Positions 395 through 44,311 of a stretch of 44,311 bases of DNA are shown in pieces. The first letter of the stretch is position 1. Each line of letters begins with the position of its first letter. This stretch comes from a virus, in the IMG/VR virus record IMGVR_UViG_3300045988_112757, one strand, 5' to 3'. A program made the position numbers and the translations under genes. The notes beneath the pieces are model-generated. The model ran no database searches, was not told where the DNA came from, and saw only the letters and a program-made list of their open reading frames with translations.

Positions 395-757
395 TTAGTT
401 CTCTACCGGCTCCTCCACCCGGAACCCGCGGCCCCGACGGGGACTGCGCAACATGCGACATTCGAAATCCGTACTGAACACCTCTACCGAGAACAGGCAC
501 AGCAGAACCGCGGCCCCGATGCGTCGGGTCATCTCGGACACGTTGAGCGTGATGCCGAAATTCTGCGTGAAATACCAGGTAACCAATGCCTGCAAGGTCC
601 GCTTCGTCCCCGTCTTGTCGTAGATGCTCTGGAGGTGGTTGGCTACGCATTGGTAGATCACGTTCATCCGATCTGCGATCTCGCGGGCCGAATAGCCCAA
701 TACGACGAGGTTCATCACCTCACGCTCGCGTTTGCTCAGTATGGCGTCAGTTTTCAT
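395..757 (-). CDS. LuxR/GerE-type HTH transcription regulator with a C-terminal transmembrane helix
   Basis: 120 aa. LSKREREVMNLVVLGYSAREIADRMNVIYQCVANHLQSIYDKTG matches the LuxR C-terminal HTH pattern. A hydrophobic segment RRIGAAVLLCLFSVEVF follows. Confidence 0.85.
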   Translation of the reverse strand: MKTDAILSKREREVMNLVVLGYSAREIADRMNVIYQCVANHLQSIYDKTGTKRTLQALVTWYFTQNFGITLNVSEMTRRIGAAVLLCLFSVEVFSTDFECRMLRSPRRGRGFRVEEPVEN

Positions 758-4304: not shown

Positions 4305-4343
4305 TACCTTTGCGCGTTATTTGCACGGAAAATGTTATATTTG
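4305..4343 (+). promoter_or_regulatory. Tandem -7 boxes TACCTTTG (4305-4312) and TATATTTG (4336-4343)
   Basis: Both match TAnnTTTG upstream of the ATG at 4370. The -33 elements are weak. Confidence 0.45.
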
Positions 4344-4369
4344 TAACAAAGAACCACTACTACAACGAC

Positions 4370-4990
4370 ATGACAACGATAGAGATAATAGGAACGATTG
4401 TTACGACGGCAATAGCTGTCGGCGGTTCTATATGGGCTGTATTAGCTAAAATATTCAAGTTAGGCAAAGTTATGCAACACTTGGACGAGTTCGAAAATCG
4501 GGTAACATCCGATTTGGCGGCGATACAGAACAGATTGGATAAGTTGCCGTGTGCATATCACCATGACGATATTACGAAAATGAAATCCATCCTCATTCAG
4601 AAATACCCGACATCTGCGACGATATTCTCTATCAAGATGAGCCCCCGAAAACTGAATGACCTCGGGGCAAAACTATATGCCGACATTAACGGAGGCAAGT
4701 TCATCGCAAAGAATAAAAGCGCTTTATTTGAATTTATCACCAATTCAGCCCCGCGGGTTCCGCTCGATGTCGAGCAAGCCGCCCTGTTGGCTTGCACCTC
4801 CATGGTGAACACTCCGGCATTCAATGACATGAAGAACTATATATACAACGCTGCAACAATAGAGCTGCCGGACGGATACAAATATGACGTATCAATATCG
4901 GATGTATGCTTCGTGTTAAGTATCCCTTTGCGCGATATGTATCTGGAAGCACACCCGGAAATAAACACAAAGGATAACGATAACAAATAG
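4370..4990 (+). CDS. N-terminally membrane-anchored protein (206 aa), unknown function; moron
   Basis: First ATG of the track ORF, which starts at a TTG inside the promoter. TM segment IIGTIVTTAIAVGGSIWAVLAKI. Confidence 0.7.
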   Translation: MTTIEIIGTIVTTAIAVGGSIWAVLAKIFKLGKVMQHLDEFENRVTSDLAAIQNRLDKLPCAYHHDDITKMKSILIQKYPTSATIFSIKMSPRKLNDLGAKLYADINGGKFIAKNKSALFEFITNSAPRVPLDVEQAALLACTSMVNTPAFNDMKNYIYNAATIELPDGYKYDVSISDVCFVLSIPLRDMYLEAHPEINTKDNDNK

Positions 4991-5002
4991 CGATAACACC
5001 AA

Positions 5003-5137
5003 ACCCCATCGATCCCCTGGCCACAAGCCCGGGGATTTTTTGTACATATTGAACAATAAATCGCCCTGAAGCAGACTTACATCCTAAGAGAAACACAAAC
5101 ATTTTGAACAATTCACCCCATCAATCCCCTGGCCACA
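5003..5137. repeat. 23-nt direct repeat pair (5003-5025 and 5115-5137, 22/23 identical)
   Basis: accccatcgatcccctggccaca versus accccatcaatcccctggccaca. A second short repeat, ttgaacaat, lies at 5049-5057 and 5104-5112. Confidence 0.8.
5012..5041 (+). terminator. Rho-independent terminator
   Basis: Stem ATCCCCtGGC / GCCcGGGGAT (9 bp with one mismatch) followed by TTTTTT. Confidence 0.7.
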
Positions 5138-5166
5138 AAAAAATATGAAAATTTTTCGCCGAACTC

Positions 5167-5223
5167 TTGCATAATGTGCCGAGAGTTGGCTCCTTTGCAT
5201 CGTAAGGCTATGAAGATATAGCC
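5167..5223 (+). promoter_or_regulatory. Late promoter A (TTG 5167-5169, N20, CTCCTTTG 5190-5197) plus 5' hairpin (5206-5223)
   Basis: Part of a 71-nt block that is 51/71 identical to 18998-19068. Hairpin is GGCTAT-gaagat-ATAGCC. Confidence 0.55.
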
Positions 5224-5303
5224 CACGGACAAGACAAACGGTAGCATCCGCGAATCTTAACGACGAAAGGACACGTTGTTGGTAGTAGGTTTCCTGGGAA
5301 CGA

Positions 5304-5341
5304 GGGTCTGTGGCTATTCATCCGGCCGCAGACCCTTTTTT
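5304..5341 (+). terminator. Strong intrinsic terminator in the late-operon leader, 3 nt before the terS ATG
   Basis: 11-bp stem GGGTCTGTGGC/GCCGCAGACCC (one G-U pair), 10-nt loop, TTTTTT at 5336-5341. Confidence 0.8.
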
Positions 5342-5343
5342 CT

Positions 5344-5853
5344 ATGGCAAAGAGAACGGAAGGAATCAAGACGACAACCGACAGCAAGCCCACCCGTAAA
5401 GTGGGCCGCCCTCGTGCATATACCCCCGAAGCGCTTGAAGCCAAGTTTGAAGAGTATGTCGAATGGGTGAAAGCGAATCCGCGATACAGCAACAAGGTAT
5501 TGGCCGACGGTTCTATTATTCCCGTACCTTATGAACGCCCATTGACATTATCCGGCTTTGCGGTGTTCGCCGGAATCATCCCGGAAACATTCAGAGAATA
5601 CGAGAAGCTCGATGAGTTTTCCGTCGTGTGTGCACGCGTGCGCGCGCGAATCGAATCCGATCAGTTGGAGGGTGCTATGTGTGAGCAGTACAACCCGACG
5701 ATTGCGTCGCGTGTTCTGCATCTTGCCGACCGCCAGGACGTGACAACCAACGGCAAGGAGATAACGGCCGCAATACAGCCTATTTCCGTGGTCCTCGATC
5801 CCGAAGCTGCCAAGATCATCCAGTCCATCGGCAAAATGACAGTAAAGGAATGA
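5344..5853 (+). CDS. terS: Terminase small subunit
   Basis: 169 aa. N-terminal KVGRPRAYTPEALEAKFEEYVEW is the common small-terminase HTH pattern. It sits directly upstream of, and coupled to, the large subunit. Confidence 0.85.
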   Translation: MAKRTEGIKTTTDSKPTRKVGRPRAYTPEALEAKFEEYVEWVKANPRYSNKVLADGSIIPVPYERPLTLSGFAVFAGIIPETFREYEKLDEFSVVCARVRARIESDQLEGAMCEQYNPTIASRVLHLADRQDVTTNGKEITAAIQPISVVLDPEAAKIIQSIGKMTVKE

Positions 5854-16504: not shown

Positions 16505-16559
16505 TTGCAACTATAAATATAATCGGATTATATTAACCATTTAACCCATATGAAGAGAT

Positions 16560-18998
16560 ATGGCACAAGACACTATCGACAAGATCATTAATATCCAGTT
16601 CAGATATTCGGATTTAATCAAAGGATGGGAGGCCGCCTCGGCGGCTATTGACACCGCAAAAGTCAAACTACAAGAGTTTAAGAAAGCAGGTGATTCCGAA
16701 GGCGTTGCCAAGCAAACCCAGATTATCAAAGCATTGCGGACCGAGATGTCGGCCTACACCCGGGAGATTCAGGCAAATATTCGAGAAGAAATCAACCTGG
16801 ACGGAAGCGTTGAGAAACTCCGGGCGGGGGTTCAAGCCCTTACGGCTCAATACAACAAGCTAAGCCGTGAAGAGCGGAACAATGCAGATGTAGGCGGCAA
16901 ATTGAGCTCTCAAATTCGTGAGATGCAGACCGAGTTGAACGAAGCAAACGCATCATTGTTGAACTTTCGGGATAATGTCGGGAACTATGCGAGCGCAGCT
17001 AAAGGTTTTACCCCGCTTACGTTCCAAGTGCAGCAGTTGGCCCGAGAGATGCCATCACTTACGATGTCATTGCAACAGTTCTTTCTGGCGATTTCAAACA
17101 ACCTCCCGATGTTTGCGGACGAATTGACCCGAGCAAGGATGGCCAACAAAGCGCTGCGAGCGGAGGGCAAGCCGACAGTTTCGGTGTTCAAACAAGTGCT
17201 TTCGGCTATTGGTTCCTGGCAAACGGCATTGGTCGTGGGTATCACATTGCTGACGGCCTACGGGAAAGAGATTGGGGCGTGGGTGAAAGGTCTGTTTACG
17301 GCCAAAGAAGCGGCGCTATCTATGGCCGAGGCACAAGATAAGGTGAATGACGCTTTGAAGAAAGACGGGTACGGCATCGGTGAACAAATCGCCAAAGTGA
17401 AAGAATTGCAAATGCAATGGAGGGCTTTAGGGGACGATCTAAAGGCGCGAAAGCAGTTCATTGTCGATAATAAAGACGCATTCGACGATCTCGGGGTACA
17501 GGTAAACAATGTTAATGATGCAGAGAAATTACTTGTTGAACGTACCGATGATTTCATTCAATCTTTGCAATTGAGGGCGCAGGCTGCTGCGGCGCAGAAA
17601 TTAGCATCTGAGCAATATGAAAAATACATAAAAGTTGTCGCAGAAACGGAGGATGATCTTGCCAAATCGGAACGATTAAGAGATTATTATATAAAACAAA
17701 AAGCAGAACGAGAAAAGATGTATGGCGGCCTAACGGCCGATATATATCAACGCCAGATACGAGCTTCGCAGGCAATGATAAACCAGCATCAAGCTGAAAT
17801 AGATAAAATAAACGAACAGCGAAATGCGGCATTGGATACAGGCAGTATTTATACAAAATTGCAAGCGAAATATGAAAAACAGGCCCATGAAATCCTTGAC
17901 GCCGCAGGCATTGAGGAGGCCGCCAATGATAAAGTAAATGAGAAAATAAAGAAAGGCATAACACTTGCGGAGCAGCGAGCCCGAGCAGTAAAAGCCGCGC
18001 GGGAATCCATCGTAAAAGACATTGCGGCAATCGGTAATGCTTTGGATAAAGAGTTGGCCGATGCTTTCAAGGATGGAAACAATGATATTACCAAAGGGCT
18101 CGAATCACAGTTAAAAGAACAAACCCGGAAGTATCAAAACAGACTTACTGAAGCCGCATTGTCGGGCGGAAGTTTAGGGGTTGCAAAGGAAACAGTTTCA
18201 ATAGCCAAAGAGCAATTAAGGCAGTTGGATGATATAGCCAGCAATGAAGAGCTTATCAACCGGTTAGGCTGGGACGATGTGGAGCTGCAACGCCAACGGC
18301 TCGACCTCCGTATGCAGATAGCGAACGCCGAACAAAGCATCGCCCGGGAGCAGGACCGCACAGCGCAAGAGGCAGCACGGCAGACGGCGCAAACTCTCAG
18401 CGGATTATCAGGCATGACAGGGGCCTTTTCTGCAATGTTTGAAGCACTGGGCGGAGAGGGCGAACGTTATGCGGAATTTGCGAAAACATTGGCCGTATTT
18501 CAGGTTGTTTTGGCACAGGCCGAAGCCATAGCCAACGCCGTGGCCTCAGCATCTAAAGCACCGTGGTTCATGCTACCGATAACTATTGCGTCAAGTATCG
18601 CTACGGTAGTCGCAGCCATTGCGCAAGCTACACAAATAACAGATTCGGCACAAACGCCTAAATACGCCTCCGGCGGTCTTGTCACGGGCCCGGGCACCGG
18701 AACTTCGGACAGCATCCCCGCAATGTTATCCAACGGCGAAGCCGTGATGACGGCCCAGGCTGTCAACGACTGGGGCGCAATGCTCTCAGCCATGAACGTG
18801 GCAAGCGGCGGAAACGCCATCCAAGTATCGAATCTTCCCCAGCGCAACGACGGAATGAAGGGGATGGAGCGCATGATGGAACGGGTCCTGATGAATATGC
18901 CGGCGCCCATTGTTTCGGTGGTTGACATCAACAAGGGGCAGAAGCGGGTCAAGGTTCAAAACAACCTCGGAAAATTAGGACGGAAAAAATACGAATAA
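16560..18998 (+). CDS. Tape-measure-like protein (812 aa); an internal ejection-protein role is not excluded
   Basis: Long coiled-coil-rich sequence, a hydrophobic block LAVFQVVLAQAEAIANAVA...ITIASSIATVVAAIAQA, and the C-terminal motif GGLVTGPGTGTSDSIPAMLSNGEAVM seen in tape-measure or minor-tail proteins. Confidence 0.8.
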   Translation: MAQDTIDKIINIQFRYSDLIKGWEAASAAIDTAKVKLQEFKKAGDSEGVAKQTQIIKALRTEMSAYTREIQANIREEINLDGSVEKLRAGVQALTAQYNKLSREERNNADVGGKLSSQIREMQTELNEANASLLNFRDNVGNYASAAKGFTPLTFQVQQLAREMPSLTMSLQQFFLAISNNLPMFADELTRARMANKALRAEGKPTVSVFKQVLSAIGSWQTALVVGITLLTAYGKEIGAWVKGLFTAKEAALSMAEAQDKVNDALKKDGYGIGEQIAKVKELQMQWRALGDDLKARKQFIVDNKDAFDDLGVQVNNVNDAEKLLVERTDDFIQSLQLRAQAAAAQKLASEQYEKYIKVVAETEDDLAKSERLRDYYIKQKAEREKMYGGLTADIYQRQIRASQAMINQHQAEIDKINEQRNAALDTGSIYTKLQAKYEKQAHEILDAAGIEEAANDKVNEKIKKGITLAEQRARAVKAARESIVKDIAAIGNALDKELADAFKDGNNDITKGLESQLKEQTRKYQNRLTEAALSGGSLGVAKETVSIAKEQLRQLDDIASNEELINRLGWDDVELQRQRLDLRMQIANAEQSIAREQDRTAQEAARQTAQTLSGLSGMTGAFSAMFEALGGEGERYAEFAKTLAVFQVVLAQAEAIANAVASASKAPWFMLPITIASSIATVVAAIAQATQITDSAQTPKYASGGLVTGPGTGTSDSIPAMLSNGEAVMTAQAVNDWGAMLSAMNVASGGNAIQVSNLPQRNDGMKGMERMMERVLMNMPAPIVSVVDINKGQKRVKVQNNLGKLGRKKYE

Positions 18999-19002
18999 TT
19001 CT

Positions 19003-19059
19003 TGCACAATGTGCCGAAGGTTAGCACCTTTGACACGAACGCTTATGAGGATATAAGCT
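19003..19059 (+). promoter_or_regulatory. Late promoter B (TTG 19003-19005, N20, CACCTTTG 19026-19033) plus 5' hairpin (19042-19059)
   Basis: Second copy of the 71-nt late element. Hairpin is GCTTAT-gaggat-ATAAGC. Confidence 0.55.
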
Positions 19060-19159
19060 GCGGAACAATGTACGAAACGACACATACATATCGCCACCCT
19101 TTCGTGGCCGCATCTGCCATAAGCGCGAAGTGCTTTGTCTAACTTAACACATCAAACTA

Positions 19160-19738
19160 ATGGCAGTACAAACATGCACCACTACGCTCGGGCGGGACAT
19201 TCTCAACGACTGCAACGAGCCCCACGCGAAAGGCGTGGAAAAGTTTTTCTATTTCATCTCCCGGGATGCTATCGACTGGGACAAATCCACGCGCGAGGAC
19301 TTCATGATTACCAACTTGGTGGCTCTGACCGGCAAGCGGGGGTACAAGGTCCGGAACCCGTCGAATGAAACCCCAGCGATCACCATCACAGACCAAAACC
19401 CGAGCATCGACGCCGCATGGGACAAGGTTCTCCCCGTTACCCTTTTGGCTGACAGCCCGGAGAATGCCGCCGCAGTTCTCGGGTTGAAGCAGGACAAATA
19501 TGTCTGCATCTACGAGAACATGGAGAAAGGCGACGCGGGCAAACAGGCGTTCGGCGTCATCGGCTGGGAGCAGGGCGCGACTGGTGTAGACCTGAATATG
19601 GACAAGAGCGGAGATGTCGGCGGATGGACCGGCAATATCACCGAAACCGGGGCCCCTACTCCTAATCTGTTCTTCTACAAGACGGACTACGCAACGACGA
19701 AGGCGGCGCTCGAATCGCTGTGTTCGGCAGCGGGCTAA
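19160..19738 (+). CDS. Virion structural protein (192 aa), possible tail tube component
   Basis: First gene after late promoter B. The function is guessed from position only. Confidence 0.75.
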   Translation: MAVQTCTTTLGRDILNDCNEPHAKGVEKFFYFISRDAIDWDKSTREDFMITNLVALTGKRGYKVRNPSNETPAITITDQNPSIDAAWDKVLPVTLLADSPENAAAVLGLKQDKYVCIYENMEKGDAGKQAFGVIGWEQGATGVDLNMDKSGDVGGWTGNITETGAPTPNLFFYKTDYATTKAALESLCSAAG

Positions 19739-23589: not shown

Positions 23590-23907
23590 ATGGAGATGCG
23601 TAAAACAGAGCTTTTTGCACAAATACTTAAAACCGTTGCAAATGAAACGGAATTGACACCTGAGCAAATCCTTTCGTGTTGTCGCACCGCCGAAACGGTC
23701 GATGCCCGTTATATACTCGTCCATCTGTTAAGACGCGAAGGCATGTACATCAGCGAAATAGCCCGCATGATGAATTTCTCCCGCCGGGGTATCGAAAAAA
23801 TGCTTTCTCAGTTCGAGGACCGCCTCTCTCAGAGCGGGCACATCTTCAAAGTGACCTTTGAACGCATTGCGAACAAAGTGCGCATAGCCTTCGAATCATC
23901 CCGTTGA
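23590..23907 (+). CDS. DnaA-C-terminal-domain-like HTH protein (105 aa)
   Basis: CRTAETVDARYILVHLLRREGMYISEIARMMNFSRRGIEKML resembles the DnaA domain IV pattern. Confidence 0.7.
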   Translation: MEMRKTELFAQILKTVANETELTPEQILSCCRTAETVDARYILVHLLRREGMYISEIARMMNFSRRGIEKMLSQFEDRLSQSGHIFKVTFERIANKVRIAFESSR

Positions 23908-23956
23908 CCACCCTGCCGATCCGGACCACCTTTGCATTGTAGCTATAATACAATGC
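23904..23956 (+). promoter_or_regulatory. Late-type promoter C (TTG 23904-23906, N20, CACCTTTG 23927-23934) with an overlapping 8-bp palindrome (23934-23956)
   Basis: Same TTG-N20-CACCTTTG architecture as promoter B. Palindrome is GCATTGTA-gctataa-TACAATGC. Confidence 0.5.
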
Positions 23957-32230: not shown

Positions 32231-32653
32231 TCAGAATACTACAACCATGCTTGGGAACGGTGCATTATTTTTTGCTCCGCCAAACTTTAACCGTCCTCGA
32301 ATAAATCGAATCTCTTTCGCTTTACGATAAATAAACTCGTGAAAATAACGTGTATCCGTTCGCGCCGGAATAAGGGCGACTACGATTGTTCCTGGCTTGC
32401 GCGATTCTTCATAGCACTTTTTTACCCAGTCACAAATACTCCTTCCATAAGGCGGGTTACAAAAAACAATTTCACCGGCCCAATTCTGCAATAACCCATC
32501 ATCGTGTTTTGTGTAAAACTTCGCGCACTTCGCATTATCCGGACACGCGCAGGGGTCGAGAGTAAAACGAAACTCCGCATTGAGTTTGTCGAAGAAGTCC
32601 TGTGGAGTAGCCCACAAATCTGTTGCACTTGAAAACATTACATTTGTATTCAT
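32231..32653 (-). CDS. dam: DNA N6-adenine methyltransferase (phage Dam family)
   Basis: 140 aa. ATDLWATPQDFFDKLNAEFRFTLDPCA ... FCNPPYG (NPPY catalytic motif). Confidence 0.9.
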   Translation of the reverse strand: MNTNVMFSSATDLWATPQDFFDKLNAEFRFTLDPCACPDNAKCAKFYTKHDDGLLQNWAGEIVFCNPPYGRSICDWVKKCYEESRKPGTIVVALIPARTDTRYFHEFIYRKAKEIRFIRGRLKFGGAKNNAPFPSMVVVF

Positions 32654-32811
32654 TTTCTCTTTCCTTTTAACTCCGCAACGCGGCGGAGGATATGGTTCTG
32701 CTGTATTTGTTTTGGGGATTCTATTGATCCCGCGGCAAGATGGTACGTCGAATATGCGTAGTAGTATTCAGATGCTTCCCGCCGCAGTCGTTTCAGTAGG
32801 CGTGTTTTCAT
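32650..32811 (-). CDS. Small basic protein (53 aa)
   Basis: ATGA overlaps at both ends, with 32808..33128 and with dam. Below the track cutoff. Confidence 0.45.
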   Translation of the reverse strand: MKTRLLKRLRREASEYYYAYSTYHLAAGSIESPKQIQQNHILRRVAELKGKRK

Positions 32812-33128
32812 TTCAATTCAAATTGCATTTGTTTATTGCGAAAACCTGCTCCCATACAAGCCAAACCGATGTCATTGTTCGAGAATGTCGTTATTGGATT
32901 CACCGTGCAAGGGAGCGACTGAAATAGGCACCAATCCCCATCGCAATGTTCACAATTAAGGCAATATTCCTCGGGGGTACCCCACCACTCAATCCTTTCG
33001 GGATAACCGCTTTCACAACTCAACTTTTTCCATGCTTCCCAGCGTTCACGGCGTAGTTTATCCGACATGTCGGCTTTATGCTCTCCGAACAATTCGGCCC
33101 ATCGAATACCTAATGTTACCGGTTTCAT
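32808..33128 (-). CDS. Hypothetical Cys-rich protein (106 aa)
   Basis: ATGA overlap with the upstream gene. Confidence 0.6.
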   Translation of the reverse strand: MKPVTLGIRWAELFGEHKADMSDKLRRERWEAWKKLSCESGYPERIEWWGTPEEYCLNCEHCDGDWCLFQSLPCTVNPITTFSNNDIGLACMGAGFRNKQMQFELK

Positions 33129-33511
33129 CGTTTAATCAACTTTGCATGTAAACCATCAATCTCATACTCCCGGTAGCATTTATCGCAGATAATTGGCCCA
33201 TCCTCATAAACAGGGTCTCCCAATTCTTCCCAATCGTCAGTATAATTAATGCCCCTCGCCTGAATCCCATTTCCGCAAATGCACGTAAACTCACAGACGA
33301 CTTTATACTTAATATCTTCCACATGAATGTATACATCCAACCGGCCATCATTGGCGGCCTTTTCCCGTTGTATACGTTCGCGCTCGATCTTCTGCAAAAG
33401 CGCGATTTGTTCGGGATTGCCGATTTCAGGTTTTACCTCTACATCCCCGCGCATAAATTTGCCATTCACGAGGCGCAACGGCCGCTCAATGCTTGTTACC
33501 TGATCTTTCAT
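33125..33511 (-). CDS. Hypothetical Cys-rich protein (128 aa)
   Basis: CEFTCICGNG ... ICDKCYREY. The start overlaps the dcm 3' end by 26 nt. Confidence 0.6.
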   Translation of the reverse strand: MKDQVTSIERPLRLVNGKFMRGDVEVKPEIGNPEQIALLQKIERERIQREKAANDGRLDVYIHVEDIKYKVVCEFTCICGNGIQARGINYTDDWEELGDPVYEDGPIICDKCYREYEIDGLHAKLIKR

Positions 33512-34451
33512 AATTTTCGTACTTATTTATCGTTTCGAATATCTGCAAGGCCACCTGCGGAACTATGGCGTTGCCGCATGCTTTGATGGATTCTCTGCAC
33601 CACGCAGGAAAGGAGAGATCAGCCAGCTCGCCGGGAAACCCATCATTTCGATCACATACCGGGGATTCAGTCGGGAAGTCGTCCCAGCCTGGTATTCGTC
33701 GCTTTGCATTACCATTCTGGGCAATCCGCTCTTGCATTTGACTTGGCTGGCCGGGAGACTGGAATTCGTGGCATCGTTGGCCGTAGGCATCGGCAACAGT
33801 CCCATTCGAGCCGCCAGTGCGATTGTCGGTCGGTCGGCAGCTCCCGGAGACAGACTCCGGTTGATACGCCCCGATCCGGCATCTATTGCAGTCGGCGTCG
33901 GCAGCAACTCCAACGGCATGAACACCATCTTGCCCTTCTCGCATTGTTTCAATACCTGCGTCTGTACGGTAGGCAACAAACCAGCATCTGTCCCGTCGGT
34001 GGGGAGCGCCGACACCGCAAGCCGGTATAATGTACGGCTGCACTTCGTATCCTGCCGCCTCCAGGTCAGAGCACACCTGCTCGAAGACCATTCCTTCCGA
34101 CCAATTAACAATTCCGAAAACGTTCTCGCCCACGACCCAACGGGGTCGAACAGTCCGAATAACCCGCAGCATCTCCGGCCAGAGGTAGCGGTCGTCCTCC
34201 GTGCCTTTGCGCTTGCCCGCGAGGCTGAACGGCTGGCAGGGGAATCCGCCGCTGAGCACGTCGATACGATCTCGCCAAATGGTAAAGTCTGCTGTTCGTA
34301 TGTCTCCATATTGTTCTGCATCGGGAAAATGGTATTTCAGTACGCTGCGGCAAAACGGGTCGATCTCGCAGTTGAAGGCGTTCGTCCAGCCAGCCCACTC
34401 GGCCGCCAGATCGAAGCCGCCGATGCCGCTGAAAAGGGAAGCGTGTGTCAT
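33486..34451 (-). CDS. dcm: DNA (cytosine-5)-methyltransferase
   Basis: Motifs FSGIGGFDLA (I), GGFPCQPFS (IV), GENV (VI) and GNAIVPQVA (X). The ATG at 34451 forms an ATGA overlap with the upstream gene. An ATG at 34457 is also possible. Confidence 0.9.
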   Translation of the reverse strand: MTHASLFSGIGGFDLAAEWAGWTNAFNCEIDPFCRSVLKYHFPDAEQYGDIRTADFTIWRDRIDVLSGGFPCQPFSLAGKRKGTEDDRYLWPEMLRVIRTVRPRWVVGENVFGIVNWSEGMVFEQVCSDLEAAGYEVQPYIIPACGVGAPHRRDRCWFVAYRTDAGIETMREGQDGVHAVGVAADADCNRCRIGAYQPESVSGSCRPTDNRTGGSNGTVADAYGQRCHEFQSPGQPSQMQERIAQNGNAKRRIPGWDDFPTESPVCDRNDGFPGELADLSFPAWCRESIKACGNAIVPQVALQIFETINKYENYERSGNKH

Positions 34452-35326
34452 TCGCATAATCCGTAATAACTCATACAGCTTGTCGCTGTGTCGTCGTCGA
34501 ACAAGCTGCCCGTGGCGTTCTGCCACTCGACATAGCGCACGACATCTCGGATCGTCGGATATTTTTCGCCACTGGTGATCGCGTGGGCAGGAATCTTATC
34601 CGGTCCGAAAAACGAGGAGTGCAATTCCATTTCGAGGGTTGCAATCTCGTCGATCCGCTCCGGAGCCTGCCGGGCAATATTGAGGATGTCCCGCTGATTC
34701 GCCATCACGCACGGCCAGCAGCCGACACGCTTGTAGCCCATCCGGTAGAGCGGGTTCGGCTCCAACCCGGCGGCGAGAATGGAATCGATCACCTGCTGCG
34801 CCGACCAGTCGAACACGGGACGCAAAAGATCGTCGGCGAACTTTTCCCGGAACACCCGGACATCCTTACTCCGGTAGGTGTGCTTTTTCGGCTTGCCGTT
34901 TTTGTCGTATCCGTAAGGCTCGAAATAGTACTTGAAATACGTGCATTGCGCCGACATACTGGCCCGGCTGGCCGATTCTGCCGCCCGAATGCCCTGAATC
35001 ATCAGCATATTGTCCTGAACCTCGTCCAGCACGTAATCGATCGTTGGCTTGGTTTTGAGTTCTTCCGTGCAGAATCGAGCCCGCGTCGAGGGCCAGCGCT
35101 TTTTCTGCCGCGCAAGATCAACCATCCCGTCGTACTTCTTCGACTTCAATGTTACCAGGTCGAGATGCAACTTGTCGGCGATGCGATGGATGTACTCGTA
35201 AGTCAGCGGGTGTTCCCAGCCCGTTTCGCAGAATACGGTCGTGAAATTCCGGGTGATATGTTCCCGGGTCCACAACAGCGCCGCAAGGCTGTCTTTTCCG
35301 CCCGAGAATGTGACGATGACTTTCAT
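34448..35326 (-). CDS. PAPS-reductase-family PP-loop protein
   Basis: 292 aa. VTFSGGKDS PP-loop, RFCTEELK, VGCWPC. Confidence 0.85.
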   Translation of the reverse strand: MKVIVTFSGGKDSLAALLWTREHITRNFTTVFCETGWEHPLTYEYIHRIADKLHLDLVTLKSKKYDGMVDLARQKKRWPSTRARFCTEELKTKPTIDYVLDEVQDNMLMIQGIRAAESASRASMSAQCTYFKYYFEPYGYDKNGKPKKHTYRSKDVRVFREKFADDLLRPVFDWSAQQVIDSILAAGLEPNPLYRMGYKRVGCWPCVMANQRDILNIARQAPERIDEIATLEMELHSSFFGPDKIPAHAITSGEKYPTIRDVVRYVEWQNATGSLFDDDTATSCMSYYGLCE

Positions 35327-35338
35327 AGCCTTCCCCCG

Positions 35339-35866
35339 TTAATACTCCAAGGCCGCCCGACGATCGATGAAGAAGTGGATTCCAGGAGCACACTCATTCC
35401 AACGGTCATCGTCAAAATCAGAAACCTCGACGGTAGCGCCGACCGCATACACGAAGTTTTCGTCATGATCCGAACAAATCATCCCAATGTCGGCATTCGA
35501 TCCGTCTATGTTCTGAATCTCCACCACATAGGCTTTGTCGCAGCGACATTTTTCGCATCCGGCGGAACTTCGTCGAGCATCCTCCGGGATTTGCAACTTC
35601 ACGATATATCCCGAAGCCTTTTTCCATCCGATGAAACTGCCATCGGTGGGGCAAGCCATGTATGTACCTTTGGCTCTGCGCAGGTTGGCGTCGCGAAGGT
35701 TGGCTCCGCACAGGTTGGCGTCGCGCAGGTCGGCGTCGCGCAGGTCGGCTCCGCCTTTCAAAGCCTCCAATACTGTTTTGGCGAGCGTATTTTCAACGCT
35801 CGAATACTCGAAAAGGATAGAACCTGTCCAGCGGTTCTTGATCGATATTTTAATTTCTTTGTTCAT
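35339..35866 (-). CDS. Pentapeptide-repeat protein with an unknown C-terminal domain
   Basis: 175 aa. GADLRDADLRDANLCGANLRDANLRRA. Confidence 0.85.
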   Translation of the reverse strand: MNKEIKISIKNRWTGSILFEYSSVENTLAKTVLEALKGGADLRDADLRDANLCGANLRDANLRRAKGTYMACPTDGSFIGWKKASGYIVKLQIPEDARRSSAGCEKCRCDKAYVVEIQNIDGSNADIGMICSDHDENFVYAVGATVEVSDFDDDRWNECAPGIHFFIDRRAALEY

Positions 35867-36742: not shown

Positions 36743-37508
36743 TTGTCGTTTTCAGCGGGAATAACCCCGCCCAGTTATTTGCCATAGATTGTCGGATGAT
36801 CTTACGGGCAATGTCCGGCTCCCCGTTTGAAAGTTCCCGCAATTTGGAATAACAAGCCTTTAATCCCTGCTGCCGATAGGTCTGTCCGCGCTCAGACTTG
36901 TAAGCAAGCCATTCCGCCATCACTGGCTGGAGCGAAGGTTCGACGAAGGATAAATCAGTCTCTTTTCTTTTGCCGCAACTTTTCTTTTTCTCTGGTCCGT
37001 TTTTTACGGATTCATCGTCAGAGTCCGGAGAGCCGATTTCCCCCTTAGGGGGATTATAGGGGGTACTACTATTCCTCTCCTTATCCTCTCCTATTATAGT
37101 CACTGATTGATCACTGATTGATCCATGATTGATCACTGATTGATCAGTGAATTTAGCTAAAATACTGTCTAATAGCTCCTTATTAATATTTACATCGTCC
37201 AAATTAGGTCGATTGATTATTTGGTGACGGGAGAAAGTAGGAAGATAATAGAAACTCTCCGATTTGACGGAGAGAAGACTAATAAAACCGGTCTTCTCGA
37301 GCAGCCCTAACCACGCCTCCAGCTGTTGAACCTGTATTCTGTCGTAAGGAAATATTTTTGATTTTAGCCAAACGGGATCGGCGATCACCACACCCAGATC
37401 GTCCGCAAAGGTCCAAAGGCCTATATATAGCAGACGGGCGTCACGAGGGATTCGGCCTATTTTCGCGTCATCCCAAAATTGTGGCTTTATAGTTCGTATT
37501 CTCGCCAT
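36636..37508 (-). CDS. Replication initiator / replisome-organiser-like protein
   Basis: 290 aa. N-terminus MARIRTIKPQFWDDAKIGRIP..ARLLYIGLWTFADDLG is common in phage replication proteins. The gene carries an internal iteron array. Confidence 0.75.
   Translation of the reverse strand: MARIRTIKPQFWDDAKIGRIPRDARLLYIGLWTFADDLGVVIADPVWLKSKIFPYDRIQVQQLEAWLGLLEKTGFISLLSVKSESFYYLPTFSRHQIINRPNLDDVNINKELLDSILAKFTDQSVINHGSISDQSVTIIGEDKERNSSTPYNPPKGEIGSPDSDDESVKNGPEKKKSCGKRKETDLSFVEPSLQPVMAEWLAYKSERGQTYRQQGLKACYSKLRELSNGEPDIARKIIRQSMANNWAGLFPLKTTNDYGRSAKNQPPSPDELARAVAEGISRAHTRQEWE
37101..37155. repeat. Iteron array: 4.5 x 11-bp repeat CACTGATTGAT, each junction forming TGATCA (GATC)
   Basis: Units at 37101, 37112, 37123 (2 changes) and 37134, with a partial unit at 37145. 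An AT-rich stretch follows at 37150-37215. Confidence 0.7.
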
Positions 37509-39572: not shown

Positions 39573-39998
39573 TTATAAGTTGTTTCGTTTTGCGTAATTT
39601 CTCAAACTGATCAGATGCCCCGACCATATCCGGCCGTCGATGTCGGTGACATTTACGATCTCGATGCTGTCACGGCATCCGATCTGAACCTCCTCGTAAC
39701 ATCCGAAATCCACATCGTAGCGCATTTCGGTGATCGGTTCGTAATGATGTACCGCCCGGATGTCGTATATTTTGTAGGCTACGGTGTATATCTTACCGTC
39801 ATAATCGCCCCGGACATCCTTGTCGATAGCTTCCCGAATAGCTTGGAAGATCAGCTTGAAATCTACATCCATAAGCCGGGATCGGATTCTCGACCATTCG
39901 CCGCGCTCACCCGTGATGTGCTCGCTGGGAATGTCCACCAACTCTTCCGTAACCGGGAGGGCCGGGGATGTCGTCGTAGTTAGGTATTGCGTGTTCAT
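39573..39998 (-). CDS. Hypothetical protein (141 aa)
   Basis: 4-nt overlap with the upstream gene. Confidence 0.6.
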   Translation of the reverse strand: MNTQYLTTTTSPALPVTEELVDIPSEHITGERGEWSRIRSRLMDVDFKLIFQAIREAIDKDVRGDYDGKIYTVAYKIYDIRAVHHYEPITEMRYDVDFGCYEEVQIGCRDSIEIVNVTDIDGRIWSGHLISLRNYAKRNNL

Positions 39999-40273
39999 GT
40001 TAACAGGCGGTGTAAAAAGGTTGGATGTTTGCGATGACCCTTATCCCAGCCTGCGAACGGCCACGGAACGGGCATTGCTTCGGTATGATTGCCTTTGACT
40101 TCGGACGCGGGGAGATGACCCGCATCCCGAAGTTTGGAGAGCCGCATCTTCACGGCGCATTCAGTTCGCCCGAGCTCCGCCGCTATCTCTTCGATGCTGG
40201 CGCCGTGACGGTACATATATATCAGATTGTTGATGTCGTCAAGACCCCATCGAGGCTTGGTTTCCTTTCTCAT
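39995..40273 (-). CDS. Small HTH protein (92 aa)
   Basis: WGLDDINNLIYMYRHGASIEEIAAELGRTECAVKMRLSKL. Confidence 0.65.
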   Translation of the reverse strand: MRKETKPRWGLDDINNLIYMYRHGASIEEIAAELGRTECAVKMRLSKLRDAGHLPASEVKGNHTEAMPVPWPFAGWDKGHRKHPTFLHRLLT

Positions 40274-40275
40274 GG

Positions 40276-40398
40276 CTAATCGAATATTTCGTTTATCCGT
40301 TTTTCGATACGTTCTTTGCGGTGCTGATCCGAGAACACCCAGCCAAAGGTGATAACTATCGGAACAATGAACAACATGAAAGTGATTAAATGTGTCAT
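40276..40398 (-). CDS. Small membrane peptide (40 aa)
   Basis: MTHLITFMLFIVPIVITFGWVF... The ATG forms an ATGA overlap with the upstream micro-ORF. Confidence 0.35.
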   Translation of the reverse strand: MTHLITFMLFIVPIVITFGWVFSDQHRKERIEKRINEIFD

Positions 40399-40573: not shown

Positions 40574-40840
40574 TTAATGTTTGGCTTTGGGAGGAAATAC
40601 CCGGCTTACGAGTATGGTGCCGACGACGACAGCATACGTCGGATAGATCAAGCGAAACTGAGCAAGGAAACAGCCCAGGGCGTGTTCCTCGCTGGTAGCG
40701 CGGATAATGTTGGTGTAATCGATCTTGTCAAAGGAGCACAAGGGACGATTGGCTCTCAGATGACACCTGTAAAAGCAGGTGCGATGCGTTGCACGGGTAC
40801 TTTTATTCCCCGTTTTGCAACCTTTAACTTCTGTTCGCAT
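40574..40840 (-). CDS. Hypothetical protein (88 aa), first ORF after the early promoter
   Basis: Strand chosen by operon direction. A plus-strand ORF, 40577..40879, overlaps it. Confidence 0.45.
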   Translation of the reverse strand: MRTEVKGCKTGNKSTRATHRTCFYRCHLRANRPLCSFDKIDYTNIIRATSEEHALGCFLAQFRLIYPTYAVVVGTILVSRVFPPKAKH

Positions 40841-42207: not shown

Positions 42208-42664
42208 AATGAGAAAAGTCCGAGGGCTTAGATGTATTGACAGGACGCAAATCCTCTCCACGTGTTTTAATCATATTTGACTTATGAATAGTGGATTTCG
42301 CTTAACTGGCAATCACCTCTATTGCGGCGGTGATAAGTCCACCCATGTAAGATCGTACATTCGTGTACGCTATGGGAAAATTGAGCACGTTTGCGAACAC
42401 TGCCGAAGAGCTTGGGGCTCTCGCAAAGTAGCAGCGTAATCTCATTGGAGTTTTGACCTACCTCGGCCCTCGGATCTTTTCTCCCCATTACCCCAAATTC
42501 AATGCCATCCTCCGCGACCTCTCGGCGTTTTTAAGATAGCGCGCCTTGTATTTCTCATTGGCTTTCTCCGGAGGAACCAGGATTACCGTGTTTCTATCGA
42601 GCCGTAAGGGAACGTTTTAATATCCTTGAAAATATCATTCATAATTACAAGAACTTATCACTTG

Positions 42665-42735
42665 TTGAGCTACCCGGATTCGAACCGGAAGCGCCACCTC
42701 CAAAGGGTGATGTGTTACCGTTACACCATAGCTCA
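42665..42735 (-). tRNA. tRNA-Gln (anticodon UUG)
   Basis: Cloverleaf read by eye. Acceptor UGAGCUA/UAGCUCA (U1-A72 as in bacterial tRNA-Gln), U8, D stem GUGU/ACAC, anticodon stem UCACC/GGUGG, loop CU-UUG-GA, 4-nt variable loop, T arm UCCGG-UUCGAAU-CCGGG, discriminator A. No CCA is encoded. Confidence 0.85.
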
Positions 42736-42883
42736 ATAAATGCCGGTCTTTCCCGGCTGCCAGATGCTTTCGCATAACCTGTCCGATAGAGTCAAGCGTC
42801 TGTTCCGCTTTGCCATTGCCGCGCAATCGGCAATAATCCCTTGCGCTATCGTCGCTCTACTTGCATCATCAACAAAGGGGTTG

Positions 42884-42968
42884 CGGAGGGTGAGAGATTC
42901 GAACTCCCGAAGCGTTTCCGCTCGCCGGATTAGTAAGCCGGAGCCTTCAACCACTCGGCCAACCCTCC
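42884..42968 (-). tRNA. Class-II (serine-type body) tRNA with a non-canonical anticodon arm; nominal anticodon ACU, loop contains CUA
   Basis: Acceptor GGAGGGU/ACCCUCC, discriminator G, 3-bp D stem GCC/GGC with loop GAGUGGUUGAA, variable arm GAGCG-GAAA-CGCUU, T arm GGGAG-UUCGAAU-CUCUC. The anticodon arm CCGGC-UUACUAA-UCCGG has a C31.U39 mismatch. Confidence 0.8.
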
Positions 42969-44095: not shown

Positions 44096-44311
44096 CTATC
44101 CCTGCTTCTCGAATTTTATAGAATCATCCGCGAATACAACTCTATTGTCTTGGATATACCGTGCGATGCTTTTATCGTTTACTTGGCATTCGATAGCCGA
44201 AGTAAGGATAATCATCGTCGAGGTTCCCCAGCTCTCGGCGTTAATCGTCGAGGTTCCCCAGCTCCGGGCGTTAATCGTCGAGGTTTCCCAGCTCCGGGCG
44301 TTAATCGTCGA
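44096..44311 (-). CDS. Decapeptide-repeat protein, 3' part of the wrap-around gene (5' part at 1-377)
   Basis: The same frame enters from the right edge: STINARSWETSTINARSWGTSTINAESWGTSTMIILTSAIECQVNDKSIARYIQDNRVVFADDSIKFEKQG, with stop TAG at 44098-44096. Confidence 0.75.
   Translation of the reverse strand, partial: STINARSWETSTINARSWGTSTINAESWGTSTMIILTSAIECQVNDKSIARYIQDNRVVFADDSIKFEKQG
44211..44311. repeat. 30-bp tandem repeat array, right portion
   Basis: Partial unit 44211-44234, full units 44235-44264 and 44265-44294, partial unit 44295-44311. Nt 44265-44311 are identical to nt 1-47. Confidence 0.95.

Follow-up and report, generated by a model that had tools for sequence, protein, structure and literature searches.

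Two virion-gene operons of an Alistipes prophage are headed by a promoter and a small RNA hairpin

How do temperate gut Bacteroidales phages switch on their virion genes? The literature that we searched gave no account of this, and the question is raised by the locus shown above, part of a 44,311-nt Alistipes prophage sequence (hereafter the window, meaning the whole stretch of DNA that was analysed). We observed that two virion-gene operons in the window are both headed by a cassette of a promoter and a small RNA hairpin (Table 1); in the first of them, terS is followed by genes for TerL, portal, protease and major capsid protein. The blocks that hold the two cassettes, 5162-5232 and 18997-19067, align without gaps and are identical at 51 of 71 positions. 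The next-best 71-mer in the whole window, both strands included, matches the first block at 38/71, and similarity in the flanks is at chance level. An earlier note on this DNA had claimed such a block in unrelated surroundings, which was confirmed, as were its positions for the elements of copy 1; for copy 2 it named the right elements but set them one base off, with the block at 18998-19068. No DNA similarity of the window to cultured phages was detected, and its closest TerL is at most 39% identical. Prophages of A. putredinis that have nothing but lysis genes in common with the window carry the cassette too. The blocks are best explained as two instances of one modular cassette for transcription that Alistipes prophages use, and we consider it highly probable that promoter and RNA hairpin alike are genuine elements with a function.

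Table 1. Positions of the cassette elements and of related features in the window
Feature	Position	Strand	Details
GerE/LuxR-family HTH gene, early operon	395..757	-	Pfam GerE 42.2 bits (cutoff 23.5)
Upstream box 1, candidate activator site	5044..5057	+	ACATATTGAACAAT; first of two direct repeats 55 bp apart
Upstream box 2	5099..5112	+	ACATTTTGAACAAT
A/T-rich tract, UP-element-like	5138..5160	+	AAAAAATATGAAAATTTTTC
Type-1 promoter copy 1	5167..5197	+	-33 TTG (5167-5169) within 16-mer TTGCATAATGTGCCGA, 8-nt variable spacer, -7-like box CTCCTTTG (5190-5197)
RNA hairpin 1	5206..5223	+	GGCUAUG-AAGA-UAUAGCC, or 6 bp with loop GAAGAU (DNA: GGCTAT/gaagat/ATAGCC); covariance model 44.3 bits, E = 2.5e-11
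Conserved single-stranded tail 3' of hairpin 1	5224..5235	+	CACGGACAAGAC
Start-region-like segment	5262..5278	+	GACGAAAGGAC, then ACG and TTG; relatives have ATG or an ATG-TAA mini-ORF there
Intrinsic leader terminator	5302..5343	+	14-bp stem GAGGGTCTGTGGC...GCCGCAGACCCTT (5302-5337) plus T run; ends at terS ATG
terS	5344..5853	+	phrog_606, 6e-24; first gene of packaging/head operon
Probable third hairpin	16547..16564	+	CCAUAUGAAGAGAUAUGG plus CACAAGAC; internal, no type-1 promoter, overlaps ATG at 16560
Type-1 promoter copy 2	19002..19032	+	TTGCACAATGTGCCGA (TTG 19002-19004), spacer, CACCTTTG (19025-19032)
RNA hairpin 2	19041..19058	+	GCUUAUG-AGGA-UAUAAGC (DNA: GCTTAT/gaggat/ATAAGC); covariance model 36.1 bits, E = 1e-8
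First gene of second late operon	19160..19738	+	phrog_21217; downstream of 812-aa tape-measure-like gene
Type-1-like promoter without family hairpin	23904..23934	+	TTG-N7-TGCCGA-N8-CACCTTTG; different stem-loop at 23935-23955
Type-1-like promoter	40344..40374	-	TTGTTCATTGTTCCGATAGTTATCACCTTTG; upstream of ORF 39995-40273

The promoter of the cassette, here called type 1, resembles the Bacteroidota primary-sigma (sigma-ABfr) promoter, which has a -33 TTTG and a -7 TAnnTTTG about 19-21 nt apart (PMC7366714). The canonical form is found at the window's other promoters (1426, 2930 and 4305), and canonical TACCTTTG boxes do precede the ORFs that begin at 1509, 3060 and 4310. Type-1 sites keep TTG and TTTG at the expected spacing (TTG-N20-nnnnTTTG) but differ in a dyad-bearing 16-mer and in the -7 octamer, whose first base is never T among type-1 members. 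That the boxes lack TA, as had been claimed, is correct for site 1, where both bases are missing, but in most family members (xAnnTTTG) only the T is missing. The conserved 16-mer, TTGCAYAATGTGCCGA, spans the -33 box into the spacer and contains the dyad GCACA-A-TGTGC, which is perfect in copy 2 and imperfect in copy 1 (GCATA-A-TGTGC). We found the exact 16-mer at more than 118 viral loci, and in viral contigs TTTG stands at exactly offset 27 from it in 60 of 64 distinct matches, while the family flanks and the 8-nt spacer are unrelated between families. Most family members also have an AAWTTTTTC tract 10-20 nt 5' of the TTG, the sequence farther upstream being otherwise unrelated. Among 185,579 species genomes the promoter pattern occurred in Alistipes only: two A. 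putredinis scaffolds have three sites apiece, and an uncultured Alistipes has two. In relatives a tRNA-Thr starts 15 nt after the type-1 TTTG, implying that the motif behaves as a real promoter. The site at 40344-40374 is conserved as ...ATTGTGCCGA... at three other loci, and by our own estimate about 0.01 sites of this kind are expected per window by chance. The site at 23904-23934, which the earlier note had counted as a third member, lies where it was reported and is kept in a relative with a different spacer; it shares no motif with the others beyond the TTG, TGCCGA and -7 elements given in Table 1, and its stem-loop differs. The claim of a distinct late-promoter class stands as a conserved motif of fixed geometry but not as an exclusively late one, since in relatives the 16-mer without the hairpin precedes tRNA, Ant/Bro-like and HTH genes.

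The type-1 promoter probably depends on an activator, and it would combine this dependence with the primary-sigma geometry of a TTG at -33, a 20-nt spacing and a TTTG at -7. The P1 Lpa-dependent late promoters consist of a -10 box and an inverted repeat near -22, and the type-1 16-mer, with its dyad in the -33/spacer region, resembles these activator-dependent promoters. The two upstream boxes are the sole exact matches of their kind in the window, and paired YTTTnGAACAAT boxes were found upstream of the terS promoter in relatives with type-1 and type-3 promoters. The GerE-like protein encoded next to type-1 promoters is 92-100% conserved, with a neighbour gene only ~35% identical, and a GerE-family gene is conserved among hairpin-bearing phages of each of the three promoter types. 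The GerE/LuxR protein is a candidate regulator, acting perhaps through conserved TTGAACAAT boxes. It was rejected as a specific reader of the 16-mer, given that relatives whose recognition helix is identical use type-3 promoters and lack any 16-mer within 10 kb. A regulator encoded directly 5' of the promoter, as for Q, RinA and ArpU, was also rejected: the ORFs at that place sort into more than 25 clusters that are unrelated, and the one in the window (4310-4990) had no family hit and is not conserved in that position. A sigma-54 site on the reverse complement of the 16-mer was discarded on sequence inspection, both the GG-N8-GC spacing and the orientation being wrong. A search for hairpin-linked gene families across 49 loci of ~20 kb recovered only linked structural modules. 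Among the scanned ORFs (PHROGs, Pfam, NCBIfam) no N-, Q-, NusG- or LoaP-like protein was detected; for N this is weak evidence, its proteins being small and divergent. The window gave no hit to an NGN/KOW protein; a host-encoded paralogue is possible.

Right behind the promoter, 4-10 variable nucleotides after the -7 box, lies the hairpin. The two differences that the earlier note had called compensatory are real (G-C to C-G and C-G to U-A), motif and hairpin are conserved in related phages, and a covariance model of the hairpin hits both window copies, whose stem a G.U pair can lengthen to 7 bp, leaving a loop of 4 nt (-7.4 and -5.4 kcal/mol). Two copies alone are weak evidence of covariation; it becomes strong with 27 variants from relatives that were picked by the promoter alone, with the hairpin not used for selection. 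Their consensus is a 7-bp hairpin, NNCURUG-ANGN-YRYAGNN, followed by a CAC-GAC tail. Pairing is kept in 93% of cells and in all 135 of the 135 cells of the five inner pairs, and four stem pairs have changes on both sides. The covariation score was reached by none of 500 shuffles, and sliding the partners lowers pairing to 20-42%. Non-Watson-Crick pairs comprise 28 G.U against 4 of the A.C type, and 175 of 188 cells pair on the plus strand compared with 151/188 on the minus strand; the G.U excess argues for an RNA structure on the sense strand. In the loop, G (25/27) and A (26/27) are followed by a free third position, G (26/27) and then a variable base, and this conservation argues for specific recognition. 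The tail is conserved at column 34 (C, 25/27), column 37 (G, 20/27) and column 38 (A, 23/27) of the same alignment. Judged by these alignments, compensatory changes have kept the hairpin paired in dozens of related gut phages; selection acts on it as an RNA structure of the sense strand whose loop is conserved, in line with the selection that the earlier note had proposed. A K-turn or C/D-box (GUGAUGA) was rejected: its sole support was a chance-level match to snoU54, a box D is missing, and the loop is free at its third base. An Rfam 15 scan of the window at the gathering score matched two tRNAs and nothing else, and E-value scans of both leaders against Rfam gave chance-level matches only. 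Neither Rfam nor the literature searched contains the hairpin/promoter element, and searches on the motif, on Alistipes prophage regulation and on late-gene antitermination in Bacteroides found nothing relevant.

What the hairpin might do is suggested by the leader that it opens. The terminator stem at 5302-5337 is the strongest terminator-like site between 2 and 21 kb, the leader fold that includes it has z = -4.2, and the equivalent first operons of relatives also have a strong conserved terminator between hairpin and start codon, with the stem GGTCTGYTGGC/GCCRRCAGACC kept in many leaders. Since the terminator lies between the hairpin and the terS start codon, read-through is needed for terS. 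We therefore favour, with a probability of roughly 0.4, the reading that the hairpin is a protein-recognised RNA operator promoting antitermination of late transcripts, like nut and put but in neither family. The 18-nt hairpin would form within the first ~25 nt of the transcript, and its conserved loop and tail would be read by a putative trans-acting factor, phage- or host-encoded. Binding of this factor would make RNA polymerase or the leader RNA resist the leader terminator; virion genes would be expressed only with the factor present, and without it transcription would end at the terminator and yield a short leader RNA of ~135 nt. More tentatively, and with a chance of being right that we put well below even, the hairpin may be the loading site of a new Bacteroidota phage antitermination or anti-attenuation system, in which a phage or host factor, or a mini-ORF with its ribosome, licenses terminator read-through and times virion-gene expression.

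The strong conserved terminator between hairpin and terS lends independent support to the antitermination idea. Across leader families, a leader terminator was found in 7 of 14 with the hairpin compared with 1 of 10 without it, an association that is only marginally significant (one-sided Fisher p = 0.05), and the leader families share ancestry. The preferred reading is weakened because the site 2 leader has the hairpin but no canonical terminator to overcome, and the same is true of about half of the leader families with the hairpin. For the site 2 leader, an alternative long-range pairing of CGCUUAUG with CAUAAGCG (19115-19122) was tried and dropped, as relatives show no informative variation there. 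In some relatives, terS is expressed from a related promoter whose leader is 19 nt long and lacks the hairpin, which we counted against antitermination. It is weakened further because hairpins placed 11-24 nt before starts or at intercistronic sites fit translation or stability equally well.

Such placements are common. The hairpin was found behind two other promoter types and at internal promoter-less sites, often 11-24 nt before a start codon, so that the tie to one promoter class supposed in the earlier note does not hold; all copies are oriented alike with respect to transcription. In the window, the segment at 16547-16564 is, from its sequence, probably a third copy of the family hairpin (covariance model 13.3 bits, E = 0.22; fold -5.7 kcal/mol, z = -3.95), and its homologues at three other loci have the loops GAAGAA, GAUGAU and GAGGAU and one A-U to G.U change. 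Other internal copies were found at L157-type loci and, as a second hairpin 3' of the leader terminator, at locus L018. Several type-1 leaders without the family hairpin begin with other small stem-loops; as a general rule, 'every type-1 leader begins with a hairpin' gave a mixed result and was dropped.

The next-best reading, a serious rival to which we give somewhat less weight, places the action of the hairpin after transcription: it would be a 5'-terminal or intercistronic stabiliser against ribonucleases, or a regulator-bound translational operator or enhancer near virion-gene starts in a host without Shine-Dalgarno pairing, the terminator being a separate control. This agrees with a distance of 11-24 nt from hairpin to ATG in about eight independent leader families, with the copy that overlaps the start at 16560 and with the promoter-less internal copies, but not with sites 1 and 2, where that distance is 120 and 101 nt. 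The few nucleotides between -7 box and hairpin would put it at the extreme 5' end of the transcript, as is compatible with a 5'-terminal stabiliser, and other small stem-loops at the start of hairpin-less leaders point the same way. However, a simple stabiliser needs neither the conserved loop (G-A-N-G), which exceeds its definition, nor the CAC-GAC tail, and the hairpins are weak (-5 to -7 kcal/mol). Nor would it explain why leader terminators lie almost only behind the hairpin.

A further reading is ribosome-mediated attenuation, which we judge improbable. Here a ribosome would load between hairpin and terminator, at the start-region-like segment (GACGAAAnnAC with an ATG, an ATG-TAA or a short ORF that extends into the terminator), cover the terminator's 5' arm and thereby permit read-through, with the factor-bound hairpin controlling its loading. 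In relatives with short leaders, GACGAAAnnAC stands directly before the gene's ATG. ATG-TAA or ATG-TAG mini-ORFs stop 9-17 nt before the terminator stem at three loci, a 15-codon ORF runs through the terminator at another, L157-type loci consist of the hairpin, a start-like region and an ATG directly 5' of the terminator, and in the window a TTG ORF (5276-5470) crosses it. The mini-ORFs may instead be relics of a duplicated gene start, and in several families, site 1 included, the start codon is degenerate (ACG, ATA, ATT). We know of no evidence for coupling of ribosome and RNA polymerase at such leaders.

Less probable still is that the inverted repeat serves as double-stranded DNA, an operator located around +4 to +22 and bound by a dimeric HTH protein such as the GerE/LuxR-family one. 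Palindromes of the lux-box type have the form CT-N12-AG, and the repeat is superficially similar (CT-N10-AG here), a lead and not a test; the conservation of the GerE-family gene with the hairpin across all three promoter types also speaks for it. On the other hand, the outer stem positions vary freely yet stay complementary while the recognition helix of the protein is invariant, pairing is markedly better on the sense strand with G.U far ahead of A.C-type pairs, the conserved loop is asymmetric and every copy faces the same way relative to transcription, none of which suits a lux-box-type operator; some GerE-bearing phages, moreover, lack the hairpin ahead of terS. It is scarcely credible that the similarity reflects only common descent of a promoter segment that was duplicated or recombined, the hairpin being functionless, for although many leaders are clearly homologous and phage mosaicism spreads cassettes, at least 27 distinct stems stay paired through two-sided changes while their surroundings diverge, and the hairpin is kept behind three promoter types and at internal sites.

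With its promoter motif, its covariation-backed 18-nt RNA and its leader terminator, the cassette offers a testable handle on how virion genes are switched on, and the culturable type strain Alistipes putredinis DSM 17216 carries it at six sites, apparently in two prophages. If either antitermination or a translation operator is the true function, it would provide a new pair of regulatory RNA and factor and a compact expression-control part for Bacteroidota. If the loading-site system is true, N/nut and Q/pR' would have a functional counterpart in a phylum whose promoters differ and whose translation initiation is not Shine-Dalgarno-based. In contigs of uncultured gut phages, the motif can also serve in practice as a marker by which late operons are annotated and hosts assigned.

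Among known systems, lambda N/nut shares a short hairpin near the start of a phage transcript whose purine-rich loop is conserved, a conserved single-stranded element next to it, downstream terminators, and copies both at the 5' end and internally. The loop GAAGA of site 1 is also the loop sequence of nutL boxB. However, boxB has a 5-bp stem with a GNR(N)A pentaloop, whereas here G1, A2 and G4 are conserved with position 3 free, in a loop of 4-6 nt closed by G.U or U.G; boxA is a CGCUCUUA-like element 5' of its hairpin, whereas CAC-GAC lies 3' and is unlike boxA. A terminator follows hairpin 1 but none follows hairpin 2, the hairpin stands at the very 5' end right after the promoter, and no N-like protein was found in the scanned ORFs. 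HK022 put RNA has two stem-loops, ~70 nt in all, and needs no factor. Like put, the cassette has a cis-acting RNA right after phage promoters that could act on the transcribing polymerase, but only one 18-nt hairpin and a short tail are common to the families, the downstream leader differing between them. The boxB/nut- or put-like antitermination proposed in the earlier note thus finds backing in the conserved terminator before terS but not in the features that define nut and put.

The lambdoid Q/pR'/tR' arrangement is similar in its late promoter immediately 5' of the packaging genes and in a strong terminator that must be overcome in a ~130-nt leader, the order here being promoter (5167-5197), terminator (5302-5337) and terS ATG (5344). 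The Q-binding element of lambda is conserved DNA between two promoter boxes, and a conserved DNA element lies between the type-1 promoter boxes too. A short terminated RNA is predicted here, and lambdoid late control yields such leader RNAs, namely 6S RNA and, in Stx phages, StxS (PMC7547250). Unlike Q systems, the cassette has a covarying RNA hairpin, which Q does not need, in the first ~25 transcribed nt, where no TAnnTTTG-like box that could serve as a sigma-dependent pause element was found; the gene directly 5' of the promoter is variable, and no Q family was among the Pfam, PHROG and NCBIfam hits of the scanned ORFs.

LoaP acts by operon-specific antitermination through a small leader RNA hairpin, and UpxY-type control of long operons is known in Bacteroides. 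The small leader hairpin is the likeness to these NusG paralogues, and the lack of a detected NGN/KOW protein in the window is the difference. Cluster K mycobacteriophages have SAS and extended SAS elements, short conserved sequences including inverted repeats before some start codons, which are orientation-specific and of unproven function. The hairpin resembles them as a recurring, orientation-specific element just 5' of start codons in a subset of phage genes, and differs in its sequence and host phylum, in the covariation of its stem, in its conserved loop and in its link to a promoter and a terminator.

Sites 1 and 2 of the window each carry a type-1 promoter (TTG at -33 inside a conserved 16-mer, an 8-nt spacer and a -7-like box with TTTG) followed by a hairpin. 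At site 1 we indeed found TTG at 5167-5169, CTCCTTTG at 5190-5197 and the hairpin GGCTAT-gaagat-ATAGCC where the earlier note had put them. The elements of site 2 were also present, but their true position is one base leftward (TTG 19002-19004, CACCTTTG 19025-19032, and likewise the hairpin), and the coordinates of site 3 were correct. The two blocks are identical at 51/71 positions without gaps (5162-5232 vs 18997-19067), compared with 38/71 for the runner-up 71-mer in the window, and their surroundings are unrelated as claimed, with identity at chance level on either side. The 16-mer, TTGCAYAATGTGCCGA, has two exact occurrences in the window. Predicted folds were obtained for hairpins 1 and 2 (-7.4 and -5.4 kcal/mol), and an added G.U pair makes a 7-bp stem possible in both. 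The minimum-free-energy fold of the site 2 leader, the stretch between promoter and first gene, offers hairpin 2 an alternative pairing: its 5' arm (CGCUUAUG, 19040-19047) can pair with the distal CAUAAGCG (19115-19122), and relatives are near-alike there.

Promoter-like sites, hairpins and upstream repeats in the window
Feature	Position	Strand	Remarks
Site 1 promoter; hairpin 1	5167-5197; 5206-5223	+	147 nt 5' of terS
Site 2 promoter; hairpin 2	19002-19032; 19041-19058	+	after 812-aa tape-measure-like gene, before next virion-gene block
Site 3, type-1-like promoter, diverged 5' half	23904-23934	+	kept in relatives; without family hairpin
Type-1-like promoter, diverged 5' half	40374-40344	-	kept in relatives; without family hairpin
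Probable third family hairpin, internal, CCAUAUGAAGAGAUAUGG and CACAAGAC	16547-16564	+	overlaps ATG (16560) of 812-aa tape-measure-like gene; covariance-model E = 0.22 only
Direct repeat pair ACAYWTTGAACAAT	5044-5057, 5099-5112	+	5' of terS promoter; kept in relatives
Direct repeat pair ACCCCATCRATCCCCTGGCCACAA	5003-5026, 5115-5138		5' of terS promoter

The proposed search of related phages found the promoter motif conserved with fixed geometry. A scan of viral contigs detected the exact 16-mer at more than 118 loci, where we estimate that chance would give a few tens of matches in a collection of that size, and TTTG lay at the exact offset of 27 in 60/64 distinct 16-mer matches. Families have unrelated upstream sequences and 8-nt spacers but retain the 16-mer and the -7-like box; an A/T-rich tract, AAWTTTTTC, usually lies 10-20 nt 5' of the motif. 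Among 185,579 species, with one genome each, the pattern occurred only in Alistipes, namely in A. putredinis DSM 17216 (two scaffolds with three sites each) and one uncultured Alistipes, and the A. putredinis loci have only lysis genes in common with the window. In several relatives a tRNA-Thr gene lies 15 nt after the motif, which speaks for a genuine promoter with a transcription start no more than 15 nt from TTTG. A phage tRNA-Thr (anticodon AGT) and then an ASCH-like gene stand behind the same motif at the related loci L016 (1717-1835), L202 and L006, including A. putredinis DSM 17216.

The type-1 geometry matches that of the Bacteroidota primary-sigma promoter, with TTTG at -33 and TAnnTTTG at -7 (PMC7366714). 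Unlike in that promoter, the type-1 -7 octamer never begins with T. The earlier note's statement that the boxes lack TA accordingly holds for the T in all members; the A is also missing at site 1, but most members keep it. The 16-mer contains a dyad, GCACA-A-TGTGC, and we infer from the sequence that the type-1 promoter is probably activator-dependent.

We aligned in register 27 distinct variants picked by the promoter 16-mer alone. Paired cells made up 93.1% of the 7-bp structure, and among the five inner pairs no sequence had an unpaired cell (135/135 paired). Both sides had changed in four pairs (CG/GC/UA, CG/UA, GC/AU and UA/UG/CG), and 0/500 shuffles reached the observed paired fraction, doubly changed cell count or covariation score, bearing out the proposed compensatory changes and selection on structure. 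Pairing fell to 20-42% when the 3' partners were shifted by 1-3 columns. Non-Watson-Crick cells comprised 28 G.U vs 4 of A.C type, and pairing was better on the plus strand (175/188) than on the minus strand (151/188), which together indicate that the hairpin is a sense-strand RNA structure. The loop is conserved (G 25/27, A 26/27, G 26/27) with its third base free, and a CAC-GAC tail follows directly 3' of the hairpin. A larger set of 30 distinct hairpins, which was partly selected for pairing and illustrates range only, has all four Watson-Crick pair types at one stem position. Rfam holds no family matching the hairpin.

With the covariance model suggested in the earlier note and pattern scans, the family hairpin was also found behind two other promoter types of the same geometry, TTGGTAATTCACGTGACCGTCGAAACCTTTG and ATTGTTATTTAAATATCCGTCGAAATCTTTG. 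Where type-1 promoters lack the hairpin, the genes behind them are a tRNA with an ASCH-like gene, an Ant/Bro-like gene and HTH genes. Promoters with the hairpin stand mostly before terS (two families), large tail-like proteins, a 213-226-aa protein (phrog_5824), a ParB-like nuclease and the site 2 192-aa protein, the exception being one before an excisionase-like gene. The internal hairpin of the window has no type-1 promoter upstream, and the loops of its homologous copies in relatives vary; a conserved TTATTAACCATTTAAC precedes it. Another internal, promoterless hairpin follows a terS-like gene in L157-type contigs, and in L018 a second hairpin sits past the leader terminator and ahead of the ATG. 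The distance from hairpin to start codon is bimodal, either 11-24 nt (about eight families) or >75 nt with a terminator or other leader sequence between. The hairpin is thus an independent module. In many contigs (L157-L195, e.g. L157 2980-3560), a shortened terS-like gene adjoins the C-terminus of the tape-measure-like gene and is followed by hairpin, ATG and terminator but by no terL, an arrangement that may represent a satellite-like or rearranged element.

Hairpin 1 and terS (5344-5853, +) are separated by a terminator-like site, the strongest in 2-21 kb; its stem has 14 bp, and its T run stops three bases short of the terS ATG. Since no space is left for another promoter between, terS transcripts, and with them the first late operon, must read through it. 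A conserved terminator stem, GGTCTGYTGGC/GCCRRCAGACC, with compensatory variants, follows the hairpin in many leader families of all three promoter types. A leader terminator was present in 7/14 hairpin-bearing leader families vs 1/10 without a hairpin (one-sided p = 0.05), a contrast that is somewhat stronger once two misclassified variants are corrected by hand. The site 2 leader has no canonical terminator. In several leaders a start-region-like GACGAAAnnAC stands between hairpin and terminator; what follows it is ATG-TAA, ATG-TAG, a short ORF that enters the terminator, or a near-cognate codon. The leaders of L008, L035, L099 and L022 have start-stop mini-ORFs (ATG-TAA / ATG-TAG) or a 15-codon ORF just before, or through, the terminator, together with UAG-rich repeats 5' of its stem and a second related hairpin (GGAUA...UAUCC) past it, ~20 nt before the gene start.

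The genome in this window is siphovirus-like and temperate; terS, terL, portal, protease and major capsid protein genes follow site 1, and lysis genes and the integrase lie beyond the site 2 virion block. The same 30-nt tandem repeat (~3.2 copies) stands at both ends (3-98 and 44214-44311), and in relatives the early minus-strand operon runs from the GerE-like gene on into homologues of 40574-40840 and recombination genes; because of both, we regard the window as a circular permutation. The contig is probably circular or terminally redundant, with this operon spanning the window ends. No cultured phages similar at the DNA level were found. The minus strand holds tRNA-Gln (TTG) and tRNA-Ser (ACT) genes (42664-42735 and 42883-42968) and an early region (32231-35326) with two DNA methyltransferase genes and a PAPS-reductase-like gene, recalling the early-expressed cysH and methyltransferase array of a Bacteroidales prophage (bioRxiv 10.64898/2026.06.25.734096). 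An 11-nt repeat (4.6 copies of TCACTGATTGA, 37100-37150) within the replication-initiator gene is a possible iteron or origin, and a 15-nt repeat (4.8 copies, 35678-35749) lies within a pentapeptide/DUF5758 gene. The canonical promoters at 1426-1460 and 2930-2975 have in common TACCTTTGC(C/G)GTGTA...CACAATGCAAATATA 3' of the -7 box, which may serve the immunity or early region as a common operator.

No N, Q, NusG-like or sigma proteins were detected among the ORFs scanned. The 120-aa GerE/LuxR-family HTH protein (395-757, -) has a hydrophobic C-terminal segment, and is 92-100% conserved across phages beside type-1 promoters, where neighbouring genes are only ~35% identical. As the specific reader of the 16-mer it was rejected, showing no co-variation with it, but it is still a candidate regulator. 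The ACAYWTTGAACAAT boxes, common to phages with different promoter types and resembling the 5' half of the 16-mer (TTGCAYAAT), are a possible activator site and a better candidate target for this protein.

We propose that a trans-acting factor would recognize the hairpin loop and tail and, once bound, would promote terminator read-through; by default, transcription would yield a short leader RNA that stops at the terminator. The leading alternative is that the hairpin acts post-transcriptionally, on stability or translation; its internal copies and its closeness to start codons speak for this. Both ideas would be united in a variant with ribosome-mediated attenuation. It is unlikely that the inverted repeat of the hairpin is a double-stranded DNA operator for the GerE/LuxR protein, since the stem stays complementary where its bases vary, A.C-type pairs are far fewer than G.U pairs, the conserved loop is asymmetric and the recognition helix is invariant.

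The searched literature held no description of this promoter/hairpin element, and we regard both the cis-regulatory RNA motif and the promoter class as new for Alistipes phages. The likeness to a boxB/nut- or put-like signal drawn in the earlier note would extend to the proposed working logic. It is to nut/put or pR'-tR' leader control that this logic comes closest, but the cassette lacks defining features of each of these families.
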